This document shows positions 1,060-15,182 of a stretch of DNA of 64,000 bases, piece after piece. Each line of letters begins with the position of its first letter. The stretch's first letter is position 1. Origin of the DNA: a phage. Where the stretch lies: assembly GCA_020773975.1 (NCBI GenBank), contig GCA_020773975.1_3638.1; one strand, 5' to 3'. The translations under genes were made by a program, and so were the position numbers. Under the pieces are notes generated by a model. That model did not search any database. It saw only the letters and a program-made list of their open reading frames with translations, and was not told where the DNA came from.

Positions 1060-2277
1060 TTACAGGATGTATACCCGATGTTTACCGTACTGTAGACCTA
1101 CAGGACTGAAAGGGATATCTTCATCATAGTCAAATTCAGGTGCTGGCGATTCCATATTCGGAATATCGCTATTGGAACTGTTCAAAGGTTCCTCAGCATG
1201 CTGTTTGTTCTTTTGTTGTGTCTTCCCATCACCTTTAGATAAGAACTCGTAAAACGGCTCTGATAGTGTTAGGTAAACATCTTTGGCGGCATTCAGAATA
1301 CTATCTTCTGTTATTTTATCGGTTTGATGATACAAAGCACAAGCCACTAAGATAGCATTACCCGCACTAGCGCCCACCGCATTAGATTCCACATCTTTTC
1401 CTGTTTTCTCTGCCACAAAAGCCTTCATAGCTACTGTAGCGTTGTGAACCATCTTCGCGGCAGAGAGACGATCCTCGATCTTAAAACCAGCTTTAATGAG
1501 TTCCTTCACACCGTTGATGCCGTGCCCACAAGCAACACCTAAAGCATCATAGCCGCCAGATGACTTCTTAGTCTGCCCAGCAGGACCATAGGCTTTAAAT
1601 CCACTTAAGACCGTACCATCACTTAGGTTAACAATCGCAGTGACACGACCACCTACTACAACTTGCGCCAATTGCTCATCTGTGAGGACAAGGTTTCCTT
1701 GACCATTCTTCTCATCATTAACTGTCACCACATTGCCAACGATTGCAGCAATCTCACCATAAATTTTAGTGCCTTTAACTTGGGCATTTGCAGGTGATTG
1801 GGTCGAAGATTGCTGGCGAGGAGCACTTTGACCAACTTTACTTTCATCGAGAATGCTGAAGGTCTTTCCGTTTAAAGTGCCGTTTGTATACGTTTTATCC
1901 CCACTCTTAGTAATTTTGAGAGGGAAAGAAACAACCATCCCCGCCACAATATCTTTGTATCCAGAATCAAATTTCACCTGAATTTTGTCTGCATGGCTTG
2001 GGTGAAGTTTTTTCTCACCCATAGAAATCCACTCACCTTGGCTCTGTGGGTCAATAACGTTGTTATTATCGTCAACCTCTTGCATCAGGAAACTGATTGA
2101 GTGCGTAGCCTCAATAACTTTAGCTGGTTGCCCGTTGCGAGCAGGGATATGGGTACGCCGGATACCATCTGCGTCAGCGTTTTTCACTGGACGAATATTA
2201 ACATACTTGATAAAACCTTTCGCAAAATAATCAACTTTTCCGTTGATTGGATTCTTAAATTCATTGATTACGCTCAT
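1060..2277 (-). CDS. hypothetical protein, possible ssDNA-binding protein (weak)
   Basis: 405 aa; C-proximal acidic motif FDYDEDIPF resembles the SSB C-terminal DDDIPF tail but is followed by 15 more residues. Confidence 0.4.
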   Translation of the reverse strand: MSVINEFKNPINGKVDYFAKGFIKYVNIRPVKNADADGIRRTHIPARNGQPAKVIEATHSISFLMQEVDDNNNVIDPQSQGEWISMGEKKLHPSHADKIQVKFDSGYKDIVAGMVVSFPLKITKSGDKTYTNGTLNGKTFSILDESKVGQSAPRQQSSTQSPANAQVKGTKIYGEIAAIVGNVVTVNDEKNGQGNLVLTDEQLAQVVVGGRVTAIVNLSDGTVLSGFKAYGPAGQTKKSSGGYDALGVACGHGINGVKELIKAGFKIEDRLSAAKMVHNATVAMKAFVAEKTGKDVESNAVGASAGNAILVACALYHQTDKITEDSILNAAKDVYLTLSEPFYEFLSKGDGKTQQKNKQHAEEPLNSSNSDIPNMESPAPEFDYDEDIPFSPVGLQYGKHRVYIL

Positions 2278-2291
2278 TCTCTCTCCTTTTA

Positions 2292-2633
2292 TTACTTAAC
2301 GCCTTCAGCAGTTTCGTTTCCAACGCTCAACATTTTATCTACCACTAAATCTTCAACTTGATTTAGCAGGTTCAATGCAAAAGTGGAAGCAGTATTTAAT
2401 TTCAACAAATTGTTGCGGTGTCCTCGGATCCATGAAATTGCATCCTCTACCGTTTTATAGTTACCACTTTGGATGAGCTTTAGCATCTCTTCTCGAATTT
2501 CTTTCGACCCGATTACTGTTCCCATCTGGTGACTGGCGCTGGACAAGTATACGATTGTTCCAAACTGCCCTTCATCAAGATCAAGAAAACGGATATCCTC
2601 TTTATTTTCAGGTGTTTGTTTTTCTTTAGGCAT
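2292..2633 (-). CDS. hypothetical protein
   Basis: ORF-track ORF in a tightly packed co-directional array; no recognisable motif. Confidence 0.5.
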   Translation of the reverse strand: MPKEKQTPENKEDIRFLDLDEGQFGTIVYLSSASHQMGTVIGSKEIREEMLKLIQSGNYKTVEDAISWIRGHRNNLLKLNTASTFALNLLNQVEDLVVDKMLSVGNETAEGVK

Positions 2634-2693
2634 GTCTATTCCTTACAAGGTTGTTGAGTATCACATCTTACACTATGCATGCATGCATGTATG

Positions 2694-2885
2694 TCAAGAT
2701 GATTTTTTGTCTTTTTCTTGGAGAAAAGACAGGACAAATGCTGTAACCGCTATAATCAAAGGGGGCATGACAACAATTGCCCATGGTAGGTATAGAGGGG
2801 CAAGAACTAACCACCAAGACCAGTCTATAATCTCACACAACTTCAACGCTATGAAGAGAATGCTTAACGCAGATAAAAATCTCAT
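2694..2885 (-). CDS. small membrane protein
   Basis: 63 aa with two hydrophobic segments (ILFIALKL..., WWLVLAPLYLPWAIVVMPPLIIAVTAFVL). Confidence 0.4.
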   Translation of the reverse strand: MRFLSALSILFIALKLCEIIDWSWWLVLAPLYLPWAIVVMPPLIIAVTAFVLSFLQEKDKKSS

Positions 2886-2892
2886 AAAAACC

Positions 2893-3174
2893 TCAAGAGA
2901 AAAACTCTTCTATAACTTCCCAAACCCTTTCCGAACCCCCTCCTGAAAGGATACTCCAAATAACCATATCTTGATAGCCTTTCTTACACACATCCACTTG
3001 TCGAAATGCTTTGTGGAAACCCTCTGGACAACCATATTCCACAGGGAGCATATCCACATTATCTTCGAAATATTTAAGTAGCAATTCCTCTTCCAAAGAG
3101 GGGTTGTTGCGAAGTTTCTCTTTGAGATTCTCAACAAGTTGTGCACCTGTTAACTTTTTGTTTGTCATGTCCAA
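2893..3174 (-). CDS. hypothetical protein
   Basis: ORF-track ORF in co-directional array. Confidence 0.5.
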   Translation of the reverse strand: MDMTNKKLTGAQLVENLKEKLRNNPSLEEELLLKYFEDNVDMLPVEYGCPEGFHKAFRQVDVCKKGYQDMVIWSILSGGGSERVWEVIEEFFS

Positions 3175-3521
3175 TCTCCATTTTTAATTTCCAGTATATC
3201 TACGCTCTCTGTTGGTACAAAGCCAACAACAGGCTTCATACATTTCTCTTTTACATTATCGAAGACATACATTTCATCCAATGCTTTTTGTGTTGTGCAC
3301 GATTCCCAGTTTTTTGTGTACTCTTTGTAGCCATCCTCGTAAAGGAGGAAGTAGTTAATAGTTGTTGCCCCAAGAATAACGAACATAACAAAAGAGACAA
3401 CAACGTGTTTCCATGTTCCTTTATACGATAAAATGAAAGCCCAAATAGAACACAACACATAAAACGATAAAGCAGGGAACCAGTTATTATGCACCTGTAC
3501 CCACTCTAAAAAAGACATCAT
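3165..3521 (-). CDS. membrane-anchored hypothetical protein
   Basis: N-terminal hydrophobic helices (FPALSFYVLCSIWAFILSY..., VVVSFVMFVILGATT). Confidence 0.5.
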   Translation of the reverse strand: MMSFLEWVQVHNNWFPALSFYVLCSIWAFILSYKGTWKHVVVSFVMFVILGATTINYFLLYEDGYKEYTKNWESCTTQKALDEMYVFDNVKEKCMKPVVGFVPTESVDILEIKNGDWT

Positions 3522-3525
3522 GTTT

Positions 3526-3819
3526 CTATCCTTTATTTATATATCTCTTCCAGTCAGAAACAATGTTAGATGCAAGCTGGTAAGTTCCGTTGGCATGTCC
3601 ATCAGTTTTTGCTGCCGCTTTTACATATGGTAGGGATTGTTCGAGAGCATCCACAATCAAGGGACACATTGCAATAGCCAAAGCTAGATTCCCGTTTTCA
3701 GCGGTACAGATTGGGGAGTAGCTCTCCATTCCGTTTCCGTATTTCTCAAGACTACCTTTAACAATAACTTGGTCTTCACCAAACAAATCCTCATGATGTT
3801 CCCACATTTCTTCGATCAT
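3526..3819 (-). CDS. hypothetical protein
   Basis: ORF-track ORF in co-directional array. Confidence 0.5.
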   Translation of the reverse strand: MIEEMWEHHEDLFGEDQVIVKGSLEKYGNGMESYSPICTAENGNLALAIAMCPLIVDALEQSLPYVKAAAKTDGHANGTYQLASNIVSDWKRYINKG

Positions 3820-4041
3820 CTAGTTGTTCCTCAATTTTGCCATTGCATTATTAAATATTTTTTCGAGTTTCCTGTATTTAATCTTTTGTTTTATGCTTAA
3901 CTTTTTTCTCTCTCCGGCAACCATTGCGCCATAATACTTAAATAAAACAACACGTCTATTGCTTACTTTTAATACTTGGGATTCCCTTTTCCTTGGCAGG
4001 AGAAGGATTTTAGCTTTGCGATTTTTCAACTTTACCTCCAA
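3820..4041 (-). CDS. small basic hypothetical protein
   Basis: 73 aa, Lys/Arg-rich. Confidence 0.4.
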   Translation of the reverse strand: MEVKLKNRKAKILLLPRKRESQVLKVSNRRVVLFKYYGAMVAGERKKLSIKQKIKYRKLEKIFNNAMAKLRNN

Positions 4042-4453
4042 TCATCTTATCCAGTTTTCGCCACATATCCCACACACCACCATTACCTATTGTGTTTTTC
4101 GATGGAGTCACACAGGCGATAAATTCCAGATCAGTGCCCTTATTCATAAGATATTCAGATACCAACCCTGAAGCGATCAGTTTTATATTTTCAAGGTCTT
4201 CTTCAAGCTCCTTAATACGAGCCTGTGCTTTTTCAATTTCTTCCTTATGTCTTTTGTATTCTTGAAAAGCGTGCCAAGATTGTCCTTTATGAACACTTTC
4301 ACAAATGGCCTCTACTTGCTCTTTTGAGAGCACAGTGAGTGGTTGAGATGGGAAAATCATTATTTGTCCACTATCCCAATCGAATCCTGCATGTATAGAT
4401 TGAACATCAACCGAAGGTGTTGCTCCAACAGTACCTGGGGAATGAATAACCAT
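4010..4453 (-). CDS. hypothetical protein (coiled-coil segment)
   Basis: 147 aa; heptad-like charged stretch EEIEKAQARIKELEEDLENIK. Confidence 0.5.
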   Translation of the reverse strand: MVIHSPGTVGATPSVDVQSIHAGFDWDSGQIMIFPSQPLTVLSKEQVEAICESVHKGQSWHAFQEYKRHKEEIEKAQARIKELEEDLENIKLIASGLVSEYLMNKGTDLEFIACVTPSKNTIGNGGVWDMWRKLDKMIGGKVEKSQS

Positions 4454-9026: not shown

Positions 9027-9326
9027 TTAGTGAGAATCTGCCCATGTGTATCCACAAAGATATTCTCCTGTAATTAAAACTGGAAGCCCCATTATCTTAG
9101 ATGCTTTTTCTACACATTTTGTTGCAAGCTCTCCTACTGGGCAATGCAGTATCCTGTATTTCCCATACACATCAGGTTCAACAATAACTCTACCCGCTTT
9201 CACATAATGTCCGTCGAAACGATGACCTTTTTCAAGCATCATATCTACATAGCTTTGTGCCGCCTCTAAGTTAGAATGCTCCGTTATTGATTTAAATCTT
9301 TCCGGTACTTGTACCTGTATCTCATC
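9027..9326 (-). CDS. DNA polymerase, family A (T7 gp5-like), 3' exon carrying motif C
   Basis: Begins ...DEIQVQV (motif C, HDE of Pol A; T7 gp5 has WVHDEIQV as recalled) and ends ...YTWADSH, like the T7 polymerase C-terminus; ORF-track start 9329 includes the ATG whose G is proposed to be the intron 3' terminal G. Confidence 0.65.
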   Translation of the reverse strand, partial: DEIQVQVPERFKSITEHSNLEAAQSYVDMMLEKGHRFDGHYVKAGRVIVEPDVYGKYRILHCPVGELATKCVEKASKIMGLPVLITGEYLCGYTWADSH

Positions 9327-9644
9327 CATCAGTTCAGAGAGTTCGTTACGCTCTCCCGCACCATTACGTGCATAGCCACAAGATTTCTCCTGTGGGTCGG
9401 ACTATCTCATCCTCCTGATATTAAGGAGGCCTCCCGTTTCGACCGCACTTGCTGGCCTACTCTACTCGCTTTCACATTACTAGTGTGCTTTCGATAGTCT
9501 CTGAACGTTCATCCCATAGGGATGCTTCGCTGCGGATTAGCATATTGAACTTTTGCTACTTTTACGTATAAAAGCCAGCTTAGCCTTCCCGTCAATTAGA
9601 GAGGTTTTCGACATGCATTACTGCATGAAGCCACAATGTTATTT
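9327..9644 (-). ncRNA. putative self-splicing group I intron in the DNA polymerase gene (no ORF)
   Basis: 318 nt between codon His (9645-9647) and codon Asp (9324-9326); joining gives ...VIYYH|DEIQV in frame; 5' exon ends in U, insert ends in G; GUGG 11 nt into the insert can pair with exon CCAU giving a U-G wobble at the splice site. Confidence 0.5.
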
Positions 9645-12056
9645 ATGGTAGTAGATAACCCTCCTGACACCTTGGTCGTACCATCCCCATTTCACCAATT
9701 CCCAATGGAACAGGACTCCCATGAGGTCAAACAATGAAGCACCACCGTTTTGTTGGTAAGCATTCAGCAGAGAATGTTTAGAACGAGTCCAAATTTTACG
9801 CCCGTCCATGCCTGGAATATAGCGTCTCCCATTTGCCTCCCAGAATTTTTCCAACCACTCCCTACGCATTTTCAACCCGAAGTTACTATCCCAGAATGCA
9901 TCTATTACAGCCTGTGCTCTATTAAGGGGGATACCCAGCATTGCGGCTATCTTAGGAGCTTGTGCTCCATACATAATTCCATACGTAACCCCCTTTCCTC
10001 CAGAGCGTGTTACCTCCTTTCCTGCTGCTATTGTGTATGCTCTTGCGTTTCGTTCATGGGCATCCTCTTCCATCATGATACGTAAATACTCACCACCATC
10101 AAACTCAAAAGCCCCTGCCGCTGCAATCATACCTTCTAAGTTAGATCCATCACAACCCATCAGGTAGTAGCCTTCAGGGACTGTCCAAAGACCCCGCATT
10201 TCTTTTCCCAACAAAACCTTCGGATCAGGCTTGGGCATGTTTGCGCAAACAGTATGCTTGCACCTGCCCGTGTTAGTGATTCCAGAAAAACGTGCTGGAA
10301 GTTTTCCGTCAATGTCTAAACGAGGGTGATTTAATAACCCTGTATCCGTCTTATCCTCATCCATTGGGTCTAAAACAGATCGCCTGTTACGAAGTGATAG
10401 CCACTTAACAATCTGTTTTGCCATATGCACATCAATTTTCTCCAAATTTGGACACAGATGCCCAAAATTATCTTTTAATTGAGGAGATGTCGGTAACTGG
10501 CGTGCTTTACGCCGAAATTTCTTAAATATCTCTGAATAACCCCTTTCAGATGCATGGCGATGGTCAAACTTACGCTCTGAAATGTTGAATTTCTCATCTG
10601 AATCATTAAGGTAGTCAAGAATAAGAGATTTATACTCAGACTCTGCCAACTCTTCTATGTACTTCTTAACTAGTACATCAATTTCAGAATCTTCACGAGT
10701 CTTTTTAAATTGATCCTTAGTAACATCTTTTACGCGCCACAGTGTAGGTTTCCAACCAGCATCTTTGATCAAATATTTTTTAATATCATCCTGATTAGAG
10801 ATTTTCATTGGAACCATTAAATCTGGCATTTTTCTGTTTCGAAGGTCTTCTTTAGCCTTCTCTAGAAGATCCGGCGGTAAAGGTTCGAGTGTGTTCTCTT
10901 TGGTTCGCTGGGAACGAATGAAATCACCGTATAAAGCCGGATCTTCAATGCCATTCTGGATGCAATATCTCTCCCCTGCTGCACTTACATCCCCATTGCT
11001 CTTAAAAGCTGTTTTTGGTGGAGCTTTAAACTCCAGAGCTTCCCTGTTAACAGGATAGCCAAGTTTATATTCCAACCAATTCCACCCATGATGAGATATA
11101 TTACCCGCTGTGTCAAAAGGGTTAGCTGGGAATTTTGGTTGTTGAGATTTCGTCATCTCTTTTTTTGGAAGAAGTGGTTCTACCTCTTCTTCAATTTCTC
11201 GCATCATCTTATCTATGCGATCTCTTAATTTTTCTGCCTCCTCCCGATTAAAGTATACGCCTTGTATTTCTTGCTCTATCATCAAATAGTCTGTGAGCAT
11301 TCTCCTACGTAATGCATTTTTCCAATTAATCTGGTGCATCCCGTGAGGTTTATCAGTGTACATAAACTGCTTGTCATCAGGCCATCGCGTACCATTTGAC
11401 TCATCAATAAGAGCTTTCCACACAAGTTCGTTAATGATAACGTCTTCCCACACACGGTTTACATATTCCCACAATGGCTGATTACGCCAATCATCAATCT
11501 GCACTTTCTTGTTTGCTACACGATAACCCCATGCCAATAAGCCGTGTGGCCCAACCCTGTCACGTTTTCCTGTTACAGGGTTCAATACAGAATCTGGGCA
11601 GCCATTAGGCAATGGGCGATCTGGGTAAAGAACACGACTCATTGAAAGAGTGTCGTAAAGATTTACCTGTTTATTACCTATCGTCCCCATACATTTTAGG
11701 TCTTTGAACATGTCATATTCAATCCCAGAAAGTTTTTTCCACAGACGTAAATCATAGCCGAACAGGTTATGTATTGCTATCCCTCTTGGCTCGGTCTGCA
11801 ACCAAGAGTAAAAATCATCATAAGAAAGGATACGTAAATTAACACCTTCTTTGCTGCGTGCAAAATTAACTGCACTCTGGTATTCCTTGTGAGCAGGATC
11901 GAGAAACAACACCCAGTTATTTACAGCATATTCTTTAAAAAGTGTGCAGTGATATTTAGTTGCCTCTTCTAATAATCCGTCAGCTTCGTTATCTCCGACA
12001 AAAAGCCCTTTCATACTCCTCCTATTCAAGATGGGCTTGACTGTATCGTCGCCCAT
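9645..12056 (-). CDS. DNA polymerase, family A (T7 gp5-like), 5' exon
   Basis: N-terminal 3'-5' exo motif LFVGDNEADGLLEEATKYHC (T7 MIVSDIEANALLESVTKFHC as recalled); motif A GCDGSNLEGM; motif B RSGGKGVTYGIMYGA; ORF stops 2 codons after the expected motif-C His. Confidence 0.85.
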
Positions 12057-12209: not shown

Positions 12210-15182
12210 TCAAAATGGAGAATCGCTATCTAAATCTTCAGGTTGCTCAATCACAACAGCAGGTTCTTGTTGAGGAACAGAAACAGCAATTTTCCCCACA
12301 GGTGTTTCAAGTTCCAGACTTTGAATCATTGATTTAGGTCTTAGCATTACCTCCCCGTTGAGTTTAAACATATTGTCTTCCCACACCCATCCTGACGCAT
12401 CAGAAAACTGACCATTATCATCCATAATCAGGGTATCCGCTATGCCTAATTTTTTGTGTGGACGGTTTTTCAAAACAACACTACGAATACGCCCACGAGA
12501 TCGGTCAGGGAGTTCTTCAGGCTCGACACCTAAGACAACCCACGATAACTGTTCGAGTGCTGCACTATTTCCTGTGACAAAAATATGTCCGTTGCGGCGT
12601 GCCACCCACATACCGGATGGTAATGTAAAGCAATACTTGCGACCATCTGGGGAAGGTACACGTTTAATAGAAGATTTATTTTTCCCTCCTTTACGTATAT
12701 GCATATACTTTGTGGCACAAACTCTTACTACATACAGAGGTTTGTGATCATATTTACCATCAAACGCACCATTGCCATTTTTTACAACAGACACAGACGT
12801 TCTATGCCCACAAGCACTGTAAGCAAATTGTAGGAAATCTGCCTCAAATTTGTTAATGGTTGATACCCTGTTTCTGTTTACAGAATCACCATCCCAATAC
12901 ATGACTTCATCACAGATAATCTCCAACTCGTGCTGTTTAAGATTAAACCATTCCTTTGTCACCCCTTTATACCCACAAGGGGCTTTAAATTGGTACTCTG
13001 TTCTGCCTTCATGCTTCCCGTGCAAATCAAAACTCTTGTAAGGAGTGTTCGTCTTCTTCAGTAGCATCTCAAGGCGTTGTTTCTTACGTTCTTTTTTGAT
13101 GCGTACAGCTACCCTTCCCGTTGATTCAGTAAGAACCGTCCCATCAGCATTTACAGCTATCTGTAAACGTAGTTGATCATCAGTTAACCCTAATGAACCA
13201 TCACATCCAGTGGTGAATGTAGTAGGTATTTTACCACGCATACCTGATCGTTTATTGGTATGGTCATGAACAACCTCCTGCATAGTTTTCATACGAAAAA
13301 TATCAGGCGTTCGATCGTTTACATACACAACACGATGTTCATCGCTCAACATCATGTCTACAACATGGCTATTAGAAAGATGCCACATTTCATTACAAGG
13401 TAGATTAATGTACGCCTCGGGATTTACGAAGGTCATTACACCATTTTTATCGTGTTGTGCAACCAAATCTCCTTCTACGTATTCATCAATACGTTTCCAG
13501 CCTTGCGGGGTTAAGAACTCTGTGCTTGCATCAACACAACCACGGAGATCCTCTTTCCGCACAGGATACCAAAACGGTAACAAATTACCTTCTTTATCTT
13601 TCGGAATTTGTATATCAACACGCTTCATATGACTGATACTGAGGATAAACACGTCATATTTTTTGCAGAAGGCAGCCAATTCCGTCATGATGTTATCTAA
13701 ATCTCTTCGCTCGTTATCGGATTTTAATCCTGATATCACCATCGATAAGTGATCTAAGATAATCCATCTACACCCATCAAGGAAAACCATCTGTTTCAAT
13801 TTTTGTAGTAATTGGTCAGTTGGTATTGAACCAAAGTGATCGAAAATTTTAACCTTATCTTCGGCAATCCATCGTTGGTGTATAGCTAAGTGCTGCTCAT
13901 CGGTAAGGAATTGTTCTGGGTCTGCAACAAATGCTTTCGGGTCAATCTTTAGCTCCTCAGCATATAAACTGTTTACAGACTCCTCCTCATCCTCCTCTAG
14001 ACGAATAATTGCAATTTTCTCGTTCTCTTTCCAACCGTCTAATCGGGGAATATCCATGTTACGGAGGTACTCGATAATTGCATACTCAATCTTTCTTGAG
14101 AAAGTTGATTTCCCAGCTCCAGATGGGCCTGTCAGTGTCCACAATTCTCCTGTTCGTGGGCCTCTTGTTAGTTCATACAAACGAGGAAAGCACGGCAACG
14201 GAACGCCATCTTTTTTCTTTTTACGGAGATTTTCAATAGATATTCTCTCCAACCCAATCAATTTGTCTGGAACATATTTATCCTGCGCTTTAGCAAACAT
14301 ATTCCAGATATCCATCCATTTACCTTTTTTGTAAATATCCCGGATATCTTTAACACCATTTGGGTCATTGCGCTCATTTGGGTATCGTGCAACATAGATG
14401 TTGTCAGACAGTAAAAAACCTGCGACATCATCTGTGGCTTCCTTACCTTTCTTAATTCTGTGTTCTTTTTCCCTTGCTGTGGCTTCATCATTGTCTAAGC
14501 CAAGGACAATCTTTTCATATTCCCTGATAAACTTTTCGTTGTGGGCGAATGTATCCACAGCATTGGCTGTACCACAGTTCAACCCGATAAAAGGTAATGT
14601 CGGGCAATTAGAAACCTCTTCCCCATCCTGAATTGCTTTGATGCCTTTTAAAGCATTGTTTGCCCACTCACGTACTGAACGTGACGTGTTAGGATTGCTA
14701 TGAAGGAATTTAATATACTCAAACCCAGCTTGCCAGCCAGCCGTTACATCACCTTCCCCCTCAACAATAAAGATCTGTTTTTTACCAGATCCCATAGAGG
14801 CCTCATGTTGACCAAAAAATTGAGAGGAAGCCTTTACTGTGCCAACAACAGAGAAATGCCCCTTTTTCTCTTTCGGAACAGTCCAGTCTCGTTTTTTGTA
14901 CCCTGTCAATTTCCCATATTTGTCATAATATGGAAGATATGTTGCCACCACTGTAGTACCGTCTTTCAAATCTGTTGCAGATCTGATCTTGAAGTACTTA
15001 GCTGCATCTAAACTAATATCCATTTGGGGGACAGCCAAGATCCTTGTACTATCTAGGACAGACTCTACAGTTTCTTCTTCTTTTTTCTGATAATTCACTT
15101 TACCACCACTTTTTGTAGGTCGGAATGCTTTTGGGTTCTCACCTTCAAAGTATGCACCAGCCCCCCATTTTGTCATCTTCAT
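12210..15182 (-). CDS. bifunctional primase-helicase (T7 gp4-like) containing an intein
   Basis: Toprim motifs IFIVEGEGD and GLDNDEA; Walker A GPSGAGKST; helicase motif H4 split as DLRG|intein|SAALEQLSWVVLG (T7 gp4 LRGSGALRQLSDTIIAL as recalled); acidic C-terminal tail ending in F. Confidence 0.85.
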   Translation of the reverse strand: MKMTKWGAGAYFEGENPKAFRPTKSGGKVNYQKKEEETVESVLDSTRILAVPQMDISLDAAKYFKIRSATDLKDGTTVVATYLPYYDKYGKLTGYKKRDWTVPKEKKGHFSVVGTVKASSQFFGQHEASMGSGKKQIFIVEGEGDVTAGWQAGFEYIKFLHSNPNTSRSVREWANNALKGIKAIQDGEEVSNCPTLPFIGLNCGTANAVDTFAHNEKFIREYEKIVLGLDNDEATAREKEHRIKKGKEATDDVAGFLLSDNIYVARYPNERNDPNGVKDIRDIYKKGKWMDIWNMFAKAQDKYVPDKLIGLERISIENLRKKKKDGVPLPCFPRLYELTRGPRTGELWTLTGPSGAGKSTFSRKIEYAIIEYLRNMDIPRLDGWKENEKIAIIRLEEDEEESVNSLYAEELKIDPKAFVADPEQFLTDEQHLAIHQRWIAEDKVKIFDHFGSIPTDQLLQKLKQMVFLDGCRWIILDHLSMVISGLKSDNERRDLDNIMTELAAFCKKYDVFILSISHMKRVDIQIPKDKEGNLLPFWYPVRKEDLRGCVDASTEFLTPQGWKRIDEYVEGDLVAQHDKNGVMTFVNPEAYINLPCNEMWHLSNSHVVDMMLSDEHRVVYVNDRTPDIFRMKTMQEVVHDHTNKRSGMRGKIPTTFTTGCDGSLGLTDDQLRLQIAVNADGTVLTESTGRVAVRIKKERKKQRLEMLLKKTNTPYKSFDLHGKHEGRTEYQFKAPCGYKGVTKEWFNLKQHELEIICDEVMYWDGDSVNRNRVSTINKFEADFLQFAYSACGHRTSVSVVKNGNGAFDGKYDHKPLYVVRVCATKYMHIRKGGKNKSSIKRVPSPDGRKYCFTLPSGMWVARRNGHIFVTGNSAALEQLSWVVLGVEPEELPDRSRGRIRSVVLKNRPHKKLGIADTLIMDDNGQFSDASGWVWEDNMFKLNGEVMLRPKSMIQSLELETPVGKIAVSVPQQEPAVVIEQPEDLDSDSPF
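12567..13538 (-). mobile_element. intein (324 aa) inserted in helicase motif H4, probably with a LAGLIDADG-like endonuclease domain
   Basis: Starts CVDASTEF (block A), ends ...NGHIFVTGN with +1 Ser; flanking extein sequence reconstitutes DLRGSAALEQ; internal IAVNADGTV and MYWDGDSV resemble LAGLIDADG motifs. Confidence 0.6.

Follow-up and report, generated by a model that had tools for sequence, protein, structure and literature searches.

In a phage contig of 64,000 nucleotides (nt) (GCA_020773975.1_3638.1 of NCBI GenBank assembly GCA_020773975.1; this whole stretch is called the window below), a gene for a primase-helicase resembling gp4 of phage T7 is interrupted in frame by a long insert. 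The open reading frame (ORF) encodes 990 amino acids (aa), of which residues 549-872 belong to the insert (972 nt, 324 stop-free codons; Table 1). By megablast the gene was assigned to the Avunavirus group of the Vequintavirinae. The insert opens with TGT GTT GAT GCA, the start of Cys-Val-Asp-Ala-Ser-Thr, and closes with ACA GGA AAT (Thr-Gly-Asn), which is followed by AGT (Ser). The N-terminal flanking part of the host protein (N-extein) holds the primase/Toprim region, the Walker A motif (GPSGAGKS) and the first part of helicase motif H4, and the C-extein holds the remainder of H4 and the C-terminal tail. Pfam DnaB_C and AAA_25 matched precursor residues 332-521, ending ahead of the insert, and the DnaB_C match broke off at profile position 180 of 255. 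Deleting the insert in silico yielded a protein of 666 aa with the junction ...KEDLRG^SAALEQLS... (the caret marks the insertion point here and below). The continuous reading frame ruled out an intron or a free-standing endonuclease gene as the identity of the insert. Base composition revealed no foreign signature, with a G+C content of ~0.40 for insert and flanks alike. A preliminary description of the window, made from the sequence alone, had called the insert an intein; its coordinates, length and end residues were exact to the base, and the internal motifs it quoted, IAVNADGTV (with Asp132) and MYWDGDSV (with Asp216), were both found.

Table 1. Coordinates of the interrupted primase-helicase gene, its insert and the neighbouring polymerase gene in the window
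Feature	Coordinates	Strand	Basis or remark
Precursor ORF, gp4-like primase-helicase with intein, 990 aa and stop	12210..15182	-	ORF list; Pfam; T7 gp4 homology
N-extein, aa 1-548, C-terminal end ...VRKEDLRG	13539..15182	-	Alignment to intein-less Av-05 and to T7 gp4
Left flank, 37 nt directly upstream of the insertion point	13539..13575	-	13 differences from the empty Av-05 allele
Intein, 324 aa, Cys1 to Asn324	12567..13538	-	
Splicing (Hedgehog/intein, HINT) domain, N-terminal lobe, intein aa 1-105	13224..13538	-	Secondary structure of model; AceL NrdHF profile match
Block A: Cys1, TEFLTPQGW	Cys1 codon 13536..13538	-	
Block B: Ser65-x-x-His68-Arg69-Val70	His68 codon 13335..13337	-	
LAGLIDADG homing endonuclease domain, intein aa about 106-285	12684..13223	-	
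Endonuclease motif 1: LQIAVNADG	Asp132 codon 13143..13145	-	
Endonuclease block D: Lys152	within 12684..13223	-	
Endonuclease motif 2: EVMYWDG	Asp216 codon 12891..12893	-	
Splicing domain, C-terminal lobe, intein aa 286-324	12567..12683	-	Family conservation
Block F: KYCF, Cys303	codon 12630..12632	-	
Block G: FVTGN, Thr322-Gly323-Asn324	12567..12575	-	
Ser+1, first C-extein residue	12564..12566	-	
C-extein, aa 873-990 and stop, start SAALEQLSWVVLG	12210..12566	-	Alignment to Av-05 and to T7 gp4
Polymerase exon 1 ORF, end ...VIYYHK and stop	9639..12056	-	805 aa
Polymerase exon 2 ORF, start MDEIQVQV	9027..9329	-	
Group I intron, complete	9379..9654	-	Rfam RF00028, 81.2 bits (gathering score 50), E 7e-21

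The intein-less protein matched T7 gp4 structures with an E value of about 1e-24, and its stretch 'pvrkeSLRGSAALEQLS' paired with 'pvsitDLRGSGALRQLS' of T7. The junction aligned to T7 gp4 (DLRGSGALRQLS) showed that precise removal of the insert restores the conserved host motif H4. Judged by this alignment, the intein is located between Gly548 and Ser873, that is, between the Gly and the Ser of motif H4 (T7 DLRG^SGALRQLS), where the preliminary description had placed it. The insertion point adjoins a predicted arginine finger (DLR-G^S), which in T7 gp4 is presumably Arg522 beside the H4 junction. We take the junction of the Ssp DnaB intein, ...ESG^SIEQD, to have the same G^S position. In DnaB, motif H4 is recognised as a hot spot for inteins (PMC4760082), and two of the three intein sites of that protein (a and c) lie within it (Novikova et al., PMC4760082). 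The window intein thus shares with the inteins of these two sites, such as that of Ssp DnaB, a location in motif H4 of a replicative helicase of the DnaB/gp4 superfamily. However, its host is a phage primase-helicase fusion and theirs is cellular DnaB, and the NpuDnaB and SspDnaB inteins are of a different lineage, with Asp at block position F:4 and a His-Asn end (match to the profile of the window intein's family only E 0.15-0.8).

Close relatives of the gene differed in the state of this site. The primase/helicase gene of Escherichia phage Av-05 (2001 nt, 666 aa) is without exactly the 972 nt, reads ...KESLRG^SAALEQLS... at the junction, and is 96.6% and 97.5% identical to the two exteins of the window at the nucleotide level. 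The preliminary description had suggested a comparison with intein-less homologues and had expected that deletion would restore H4 and leave a product of roughly 666 aa; the empty allele of Av-05, with its 666-aa protein and the same junction residue, agrees with these expectations to a degree far beyond chance. Phages 18-1-2 (OK136180, locus L002, 4001..6928), 19-1-2, 24-2-1 and vB_EcoM_TH18, whose helicase exteins have ~95% nucleotide identity to those of the window, encode a 975-aa protein with another insert at the identical position. This alternative insert has 308 aa, runs from Cys to FVTGN^Ser, is ~31% identical to the window intein and is another member of the same intein family. One homing site is therefore found in three states in near-identical genes: empty, occupied by one intein, or occupied by a second. 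The records of these four phages contained two to three family matches each, and other genes may hold further copies.

We identified the insert through family profiles and a predicted structure, both of which were required; the insert by itself, used as a single-sequence query of the PDB, returned no match. A translated search of phage genomes gave 316 records with a match to the insert, 289 of them covering at least 80%; the annotated hosts were primase/helicases (Pseudomonas KIL phages, 42%), PhoH, RtcB and RecD-like helicases. The preliminary description had proposed a search with hidden Markov models. HMMER, run exhaustively against 1.84 billion representatives, recovered the same module from 3,323 proteins with E<=1e-3; the stricter cut-off of E<=1e-30 left 586. 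Among the 150 best matches, nearly all span residues 1-324, at varied positions in host proteins of 439-1394 aa. A word-indexed protein search, even with a profile, had retrieved 20 relatives only, and the exhaustive search was needed to gauge the size of the family. The most frequent insertion site of the family is the Walker A loop, G^[S/C/T]GK[S/T]. The family profile placed two full-length copies each in the metagenomic primase-helicases P0022 (148-450, 605-928) and P0027 (189-499, 668-994); in Pfam scans of ten host proteins, nothing significant lay over the family copies except LAGLIDADG_3, which matched the equivalent of motif 1 in the second copy of these two proteins. Single-sequence searches of such metagenomic proteins had given two matched stretches in P0022 and P0027 and three in P0028. 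We conclude that the family is very abundant, with thousands of representative clusters, and is missed here by Pfam and NCBIfam. Its host proteins are usually annotated without mention of an intein, the labels of the relatives being at present just 'DNA primase/helicase' or 'hypothetical protein'. When all six frames of the window were searched, no further family copy came to light.

A structure model built from a 19-sequence alignment was of high quality (mean predicted local distance difference test score, 92.5; predicted template modelling score, 0.90). Its best Foldseek matches in the PDB were TliVMA, PhoVMA, PI-SceI, PI-PfuI and PI-TkoII, with I-DmoI next as a match to the middle domain, and its relatives in BFVD include proteins named 'DOD-type homing endonuclease domain-containing'. 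In the model, the splicing domain has the Hedgehog/intein fold, and the middle domain has the alpha-beta-beta-alpha-beta-beta-alpha double-domain fold of LAGLIDADG proteins with the two LAGLIDADG helices at the interface. Sequence identity to PI-SceI, PI-PfuI, PI-PkoII (PI-TkoII) and TliVMA is 9-15%, and, unlike the window intein, these archaeal and yeast inteins are larger, have extra DNA-recognition regions, end in His-Asn and carry Asp F:4. Recurrence of the module in unrelated proteins, together with the predicted fold, identifies the insert as an endonuclease-containing intein.

We considered whether the insert is instead a permanent, non-splicing accessory domain, so that the 990-aa protein would be the working enzyme. 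Curated domain models do not name it as an intein, which could be read in this sense. However, the insert separates two residues of motif H4 that are neighbours in T7 gp4, a 97%-identical phage lives without it, the splice-site residues are invariant, and relatives have been proven to splice. Moreover, the module sits in many unrelated proteins, mostly within the Walker A loop, where a permanent insert on the scale of 36 kDa would not be tolerable. We regard a fixed accessory domain as extremely improbable and rejected it because an allele with an empty site exists and because relatives are inserted in Walker A loops.

Residue conservation was assessed in 172 full-length copies from 165 representative proteins, aligned to the family profile. 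Cys1, His68 (block B:10) and Cys303 (block F:4) were present in every copy, and block B:7, Ser65 in the window, was Ser, Thr or Cys throughout. At the C-terminal end, Thr322 (G:5) was conserved in 160 copies, the penultimate Gly323 (G:6) in 165 and the terminal Asn324 (G:7) in 171. The residue at +1 was Ser, as in the window, in 88 copies, Cys in 65 and Thr in 19; Gly stood at -1 in 141. Block B:12, Val70 in the window, was Val, Ile, Phe, Met or Leu across the family and never Trp. The window intein has all the junction residues by which inteins are judged (N-terminal Cys/Ser, Thr/Ser-x-x-His, C-terminal Asn, and Cys/Ser/Thr at +1). The preliminary description had the two ends right but overlooked the invariant cysteine of block F. 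In the endonuclease domain, a catalytic acidic residue closes each LAGLIDADG motif, Asp132 (..NADG) and Asp216 (..YWDG), both found in 168/172 copies, and the block D lysine, Lys152, was found in 171/172. Together with the I-DmoI-like structure and the LAGLIDADG_3 matches in P0022 and P0027, these residues support the type of endonuclease that the preliminary description had suspected, just as the exact empty allele, the likeness to solved endonuclease-containing inteins and the conserved splice junctions support its intein call.

The clearest signature of horizontal transfer that we found is in a divergent primase-helicase on a 136-kb viral contig of IMG/VR (IMGVR_UViG_3300045988_163358, 1354..4320; locus L004), which holds an intein at the same site with the junctions NLRG^C...ITGN^SAAIEQLS. 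This intein is 87% identical to that of the window at the amino acid level (82.5% in nucleotides), whereas the exteins are 63% and 55% identical in amino acids (65-67% in nucleotides), and the step in similarity coincides with the intein borders. The proportion of synonymous differences was about 0.8 in the exteins, near saturation, and 0.58 in the intein. The ratio of nonsynonymous to synonymous substitution rates (dN/dS) was 0.064 for the whole intein, 0.04 for the endonuclease domain and 0.04-0.14 for the splicing lobes. On sequence comparison, this pattern is consistent with a horizontal transfer after which both activities were kept under purifying selection. The three-state site and the sharp similarity step at the intein borders provide a clear illustration of the homing cycle in nature.

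The left flank of the insertion point differs between the window and Av-05 mostly by synonymous codon swaps (for example CGG/AGA, CTC/TTA and CGT/AGG), plus one Asp/Ser change. This cluster deviates strongly from the gene background of 43/1607 (binomial P = 7e-12), and the first 134 nt downstream of the junction contain no difference. The intein-bearing 18-1-2 allele carries the left-flank version of the window with one difference. The cluster reflects either co-conversion with an intein or a cleavage-resistant site in Av-05. A scan of IMG/VR with the joined-exteins sequence, allowing any codons for the last few N-extein residues, returned Av-05 itself only and no natural empty site with the window's own flanks.

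These flank data bear on whether the splicing domain works while the endonuclease is inactive on any available target, the intein being inherited only vertically at a late stage of the homing cycle. The heavily altered left flank of the only empty allele in the searched collections and the return of Av-05 alone from IMG/VR would be expected in that case. However, the aspartates of the two LAGLIDADG motifs and the lysine of block D have all been retained, and the endonuclease domain has evolved at a dN/dS of 0.04. In addition, the intein is far more similar between the window and L004 than the host gene is, which argues for a fairly recent transfer, and the presence of a different intein at the same site in near-identical phages argues for ongoing turnover at the site. 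We therefore consider an inactive endonuclease improbable; by these comparisons the intein is probably still mobile.

We conclude that the product of 12567..13538 (-) is an intein, functional and mobile, with a homing endonuclease of the LAGLIDADG type, inserted in motif H4 of the T7 gp4-like primase-helicase, a reading to which we assign a probability of about 0.88. For the window intein itself, the anatomy, the empty site, the fold, the family-wide conservation, the horizontal-transfer signature and the purifying selection are shown here, and we infer splicing and cleavage activity in this particular phage. Some observations weigh against this reading. Among the curated models of Pfam and NCBIfam, none matches the insert alone. 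Av-05 has the only empty site known, and since 13 of the 37 nt that precede the junction are altered there, it may not be a substrate for the window endonuclease. Lastly, the joint presence of Cys1 and Cys F:4 leaves the first chemical step of splicing ambiguous. For annotation, our reading means that the helicase of this phage is a 666-aa protein derived from a 990-aa precursor, and that the 324-aa insert is an intein with a LAGLIDADG endonuclease. It belongs to a well-documented kind of parasite: inteins with LAGLIDADG endonucleases occur in phage replication, packaging and nucleotide-metabolism genes, including those of the related Vequintavirinae phage CB7 (PMC7344957), and likewise in actinobacteriophages (PMC5050341; bioRxiv 10.1101/2025.01.02.630785).

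We propose that the gene is translated as the 990-aa precursor, that the two splicing lobes (intein aa 1-105 and 286-324) fold together, and that they would release the intein of 324 aa and ligate the exteins to give the helicase of 666 aa. The chemistry most likely opens with an N-S acyl shift at Cys1, after which the N-extein is passed to Ser+1, Asn324 cyclises and an O-N shift completes the reaction. By analogy with Arg69 of the AceL NrdHF intein, Arg69 (block B:11) may take over the role of the missing penultimate His, and the invariant Cys303, standing at F:4 in place of the usual Asp, would share in catalysis. During co-infection, the released intein or the precursor would cut intein-less helicase alleles, and repair from the intein-bearing copy would spread the element (homing).

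The preliminary description had noted, correctly, that Gly replaces His at the penultimate position, but had treated this as an oddity that might affect splicing. Gly is the norm of the family (165/172), and in two distant relatives studied experimentally it is the change from Gly to His that impairs splicing. Splicing of the intein of mycobacteriophage Bethlehem gp51 (RDF/phosphoesterase) is complete, and with the G316H mutation ~50% splicing takes longer than 5 h (Kelley et al. 2016, PMC5050341); the endonuclease of this intein is toxic to E. coli (PMC5050341). That intein has the same architecture as the window intein (317 versus 324 aa, collinear from Cys1 to TGN), with Cys1, the block B His, the block F Cys (VWC versus KYC), an L/V-T-G-N end and a LAGLIDADG-type middle domain, and the family profile recovered its homologue in Corvo (E 5e-76). 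However, identity to the window intein is about 19-20%, and it lies in a phosphoesterase of an actinobacteriophage, at the site GNHD^SRAR.

The second of these relatives, AceL NrdHF (PDB 6ZGQ), was the one sequence in the PDB to which the family profile gave a significant match (E 7.6e-6, improving to 1.3e-10 with the endonuclease columns removed). It carries Ser65, His68, Arg69, Met70, an obligate Cys124 at F:4 and Thr144-Gly145-Asn146^Ser (PMC7891396), and G145H abolished its activity (Hoffmann et al. 2020, PMC7891396). Its Arg69 contacts the C-terminal scissile carbonyl and is a partial stand-in for the missing His (PMC7891396). The window intein has Ser65, His68, Arg69 and TGN^S in common with it. 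In contrast, AceL NrdHF, a proven class 3 intein, starts with Ala1 instead of Cys1; it is also naturally split, its two genes being separated by a free-standing GIY-YIG endonuclease, whereas the window intein is contiguous with an in-frame LAGLIDADG domain. Its host is a ribonucleotide reductase gene, that of the window intein a primase-helicase gene.

The splicing class of the family is less plain. Because 'YCF' of the family profile pairs with 'YDL' of a class 1 intein, in which the Asp is F:4, Cys303 was assigned to F:4. The N-terminal Cys/Ser/Thr nucleophile of class 1 inteins is present as the invariant Cys1, but their assisting residues Asp F:4 and His G:6 are replaced family-wide by Cys303 and Gly323. 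These two residues are not obligatory in class 1, as phage inteins of that class with Gly, Lys or Ser at G:6 are known (PMC5050341). Of the class 3 traits, Cys F:4 and Thr G:5 are present and Trp B:12 is absent (Val70); the lack of an N-terminal nucleophile is contradicted by the invariant Cys1, although whether Cys1 is required cannot be read from a sequence. The class 3 centre is a Cys-His-Thr triad (PMC7664689; see also PMC2807308). In its residues, the family combines the class 1 feature of an invariant Cys1 with the class 3 Cys-His-Thr centre, without Trp B:12. AceL NrdHF, too, is without this Trp (Met70).

The Trp-Cys-Thr class 3 inteins (MP-Be DnaB, Msm/Mch DnaB-1) share Cys F:4, Thr G:5 and His B:10 with the window intein; like its family, they are phage-associated and prefer the P-loops of helicases and ATPases. 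The window family differs from them in its invariant Cys1 and in having neither Trp B:12 nor a penultimate His, and in structure the window model resembles MchDnaB1 no more closely than it does class 1 inteins.

A class 1 start at Cys1 is favoured because Cys1 was never lost in 172 diverged copies. An intein following a class 3-type route is an unlikely alternative: Cys303, positioned by His68 and Thr322, would attack the N-terminal junction first, forming a block F branched thioester that is passed on to Ser+1, and Cys1 would be dispensable or an upstream relay or redox partner. Conservation of Cys F:4, His B:10 (172/172) and Thr G:5 (160/172) matches the class 3 triad of PMC7664689, and Cys303 lies 21 residues before the terminal Asn, the spacing seen in MP-Be DnaB (C320/N341), Msm DnaB-1 (C118/N139) and Mle DnaB (C124/N145). 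The closest solved relative by sequence and structure, AceL NrdHF, is experimentally class 3. Later papers describe class 3 inteins as needing no N-terminal nucleophile, three Trp-Cys-Thr inteins starting with Ser or Cys have been flagged for testing in the literature, and a disulfide-bonded precursor form was observed for a mutant of the related RDF intein.

With similar reserve, we suggest that the family might be a mechanistic bridge between classes 1 and 3, in which either both cysteines act in turn (a thioester at Cys1, a branched thioester at Cys303, then Ser+1) or Cys303 is the first nucleophile. If this were true, AceL NrdHF would be a derivative that arose after loss of Cys1, and the family would bear on the proposal that class 3 originated by convergence and not from class 1 (PMC7664689). 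Whatever the first step, the family is a test bed for the relation between the two classes. Its abundance, the conserved Cys1, Cys F:4 and Thr-Gly-Asn end and a class 3 relative that splices fast and cleanly also make it a reasonable source of inteins for protein engineering.

The helicase homing site stands alongside a group I intron in the neighbouring gene. This gene, 9027..12056 (-), adjoins the helicase gene, encodes a PolA-type DNA polymerase and is split inside motif C; the Rfam match to a group I intron (Table 1) confirms a polymerase intron that the preliminary description had mentioned in passing. There is no endonuclease ORF inside the intron. In Av-05 (KM190144, locus L001, 55..3805), the polymerase is annotated as coding sequences of 2040 nt and 354 nt with a 456-nt hypothetical ORF between them, and a gene for an HNH homing endonuclease lies downstream of the polymerase. 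Compared with the 805-aa first exon ORF of the window, the 2040-nt and 354-nt coding sequences indicate that the pattern of interruption of the polymerase gene differs between these close relatives.

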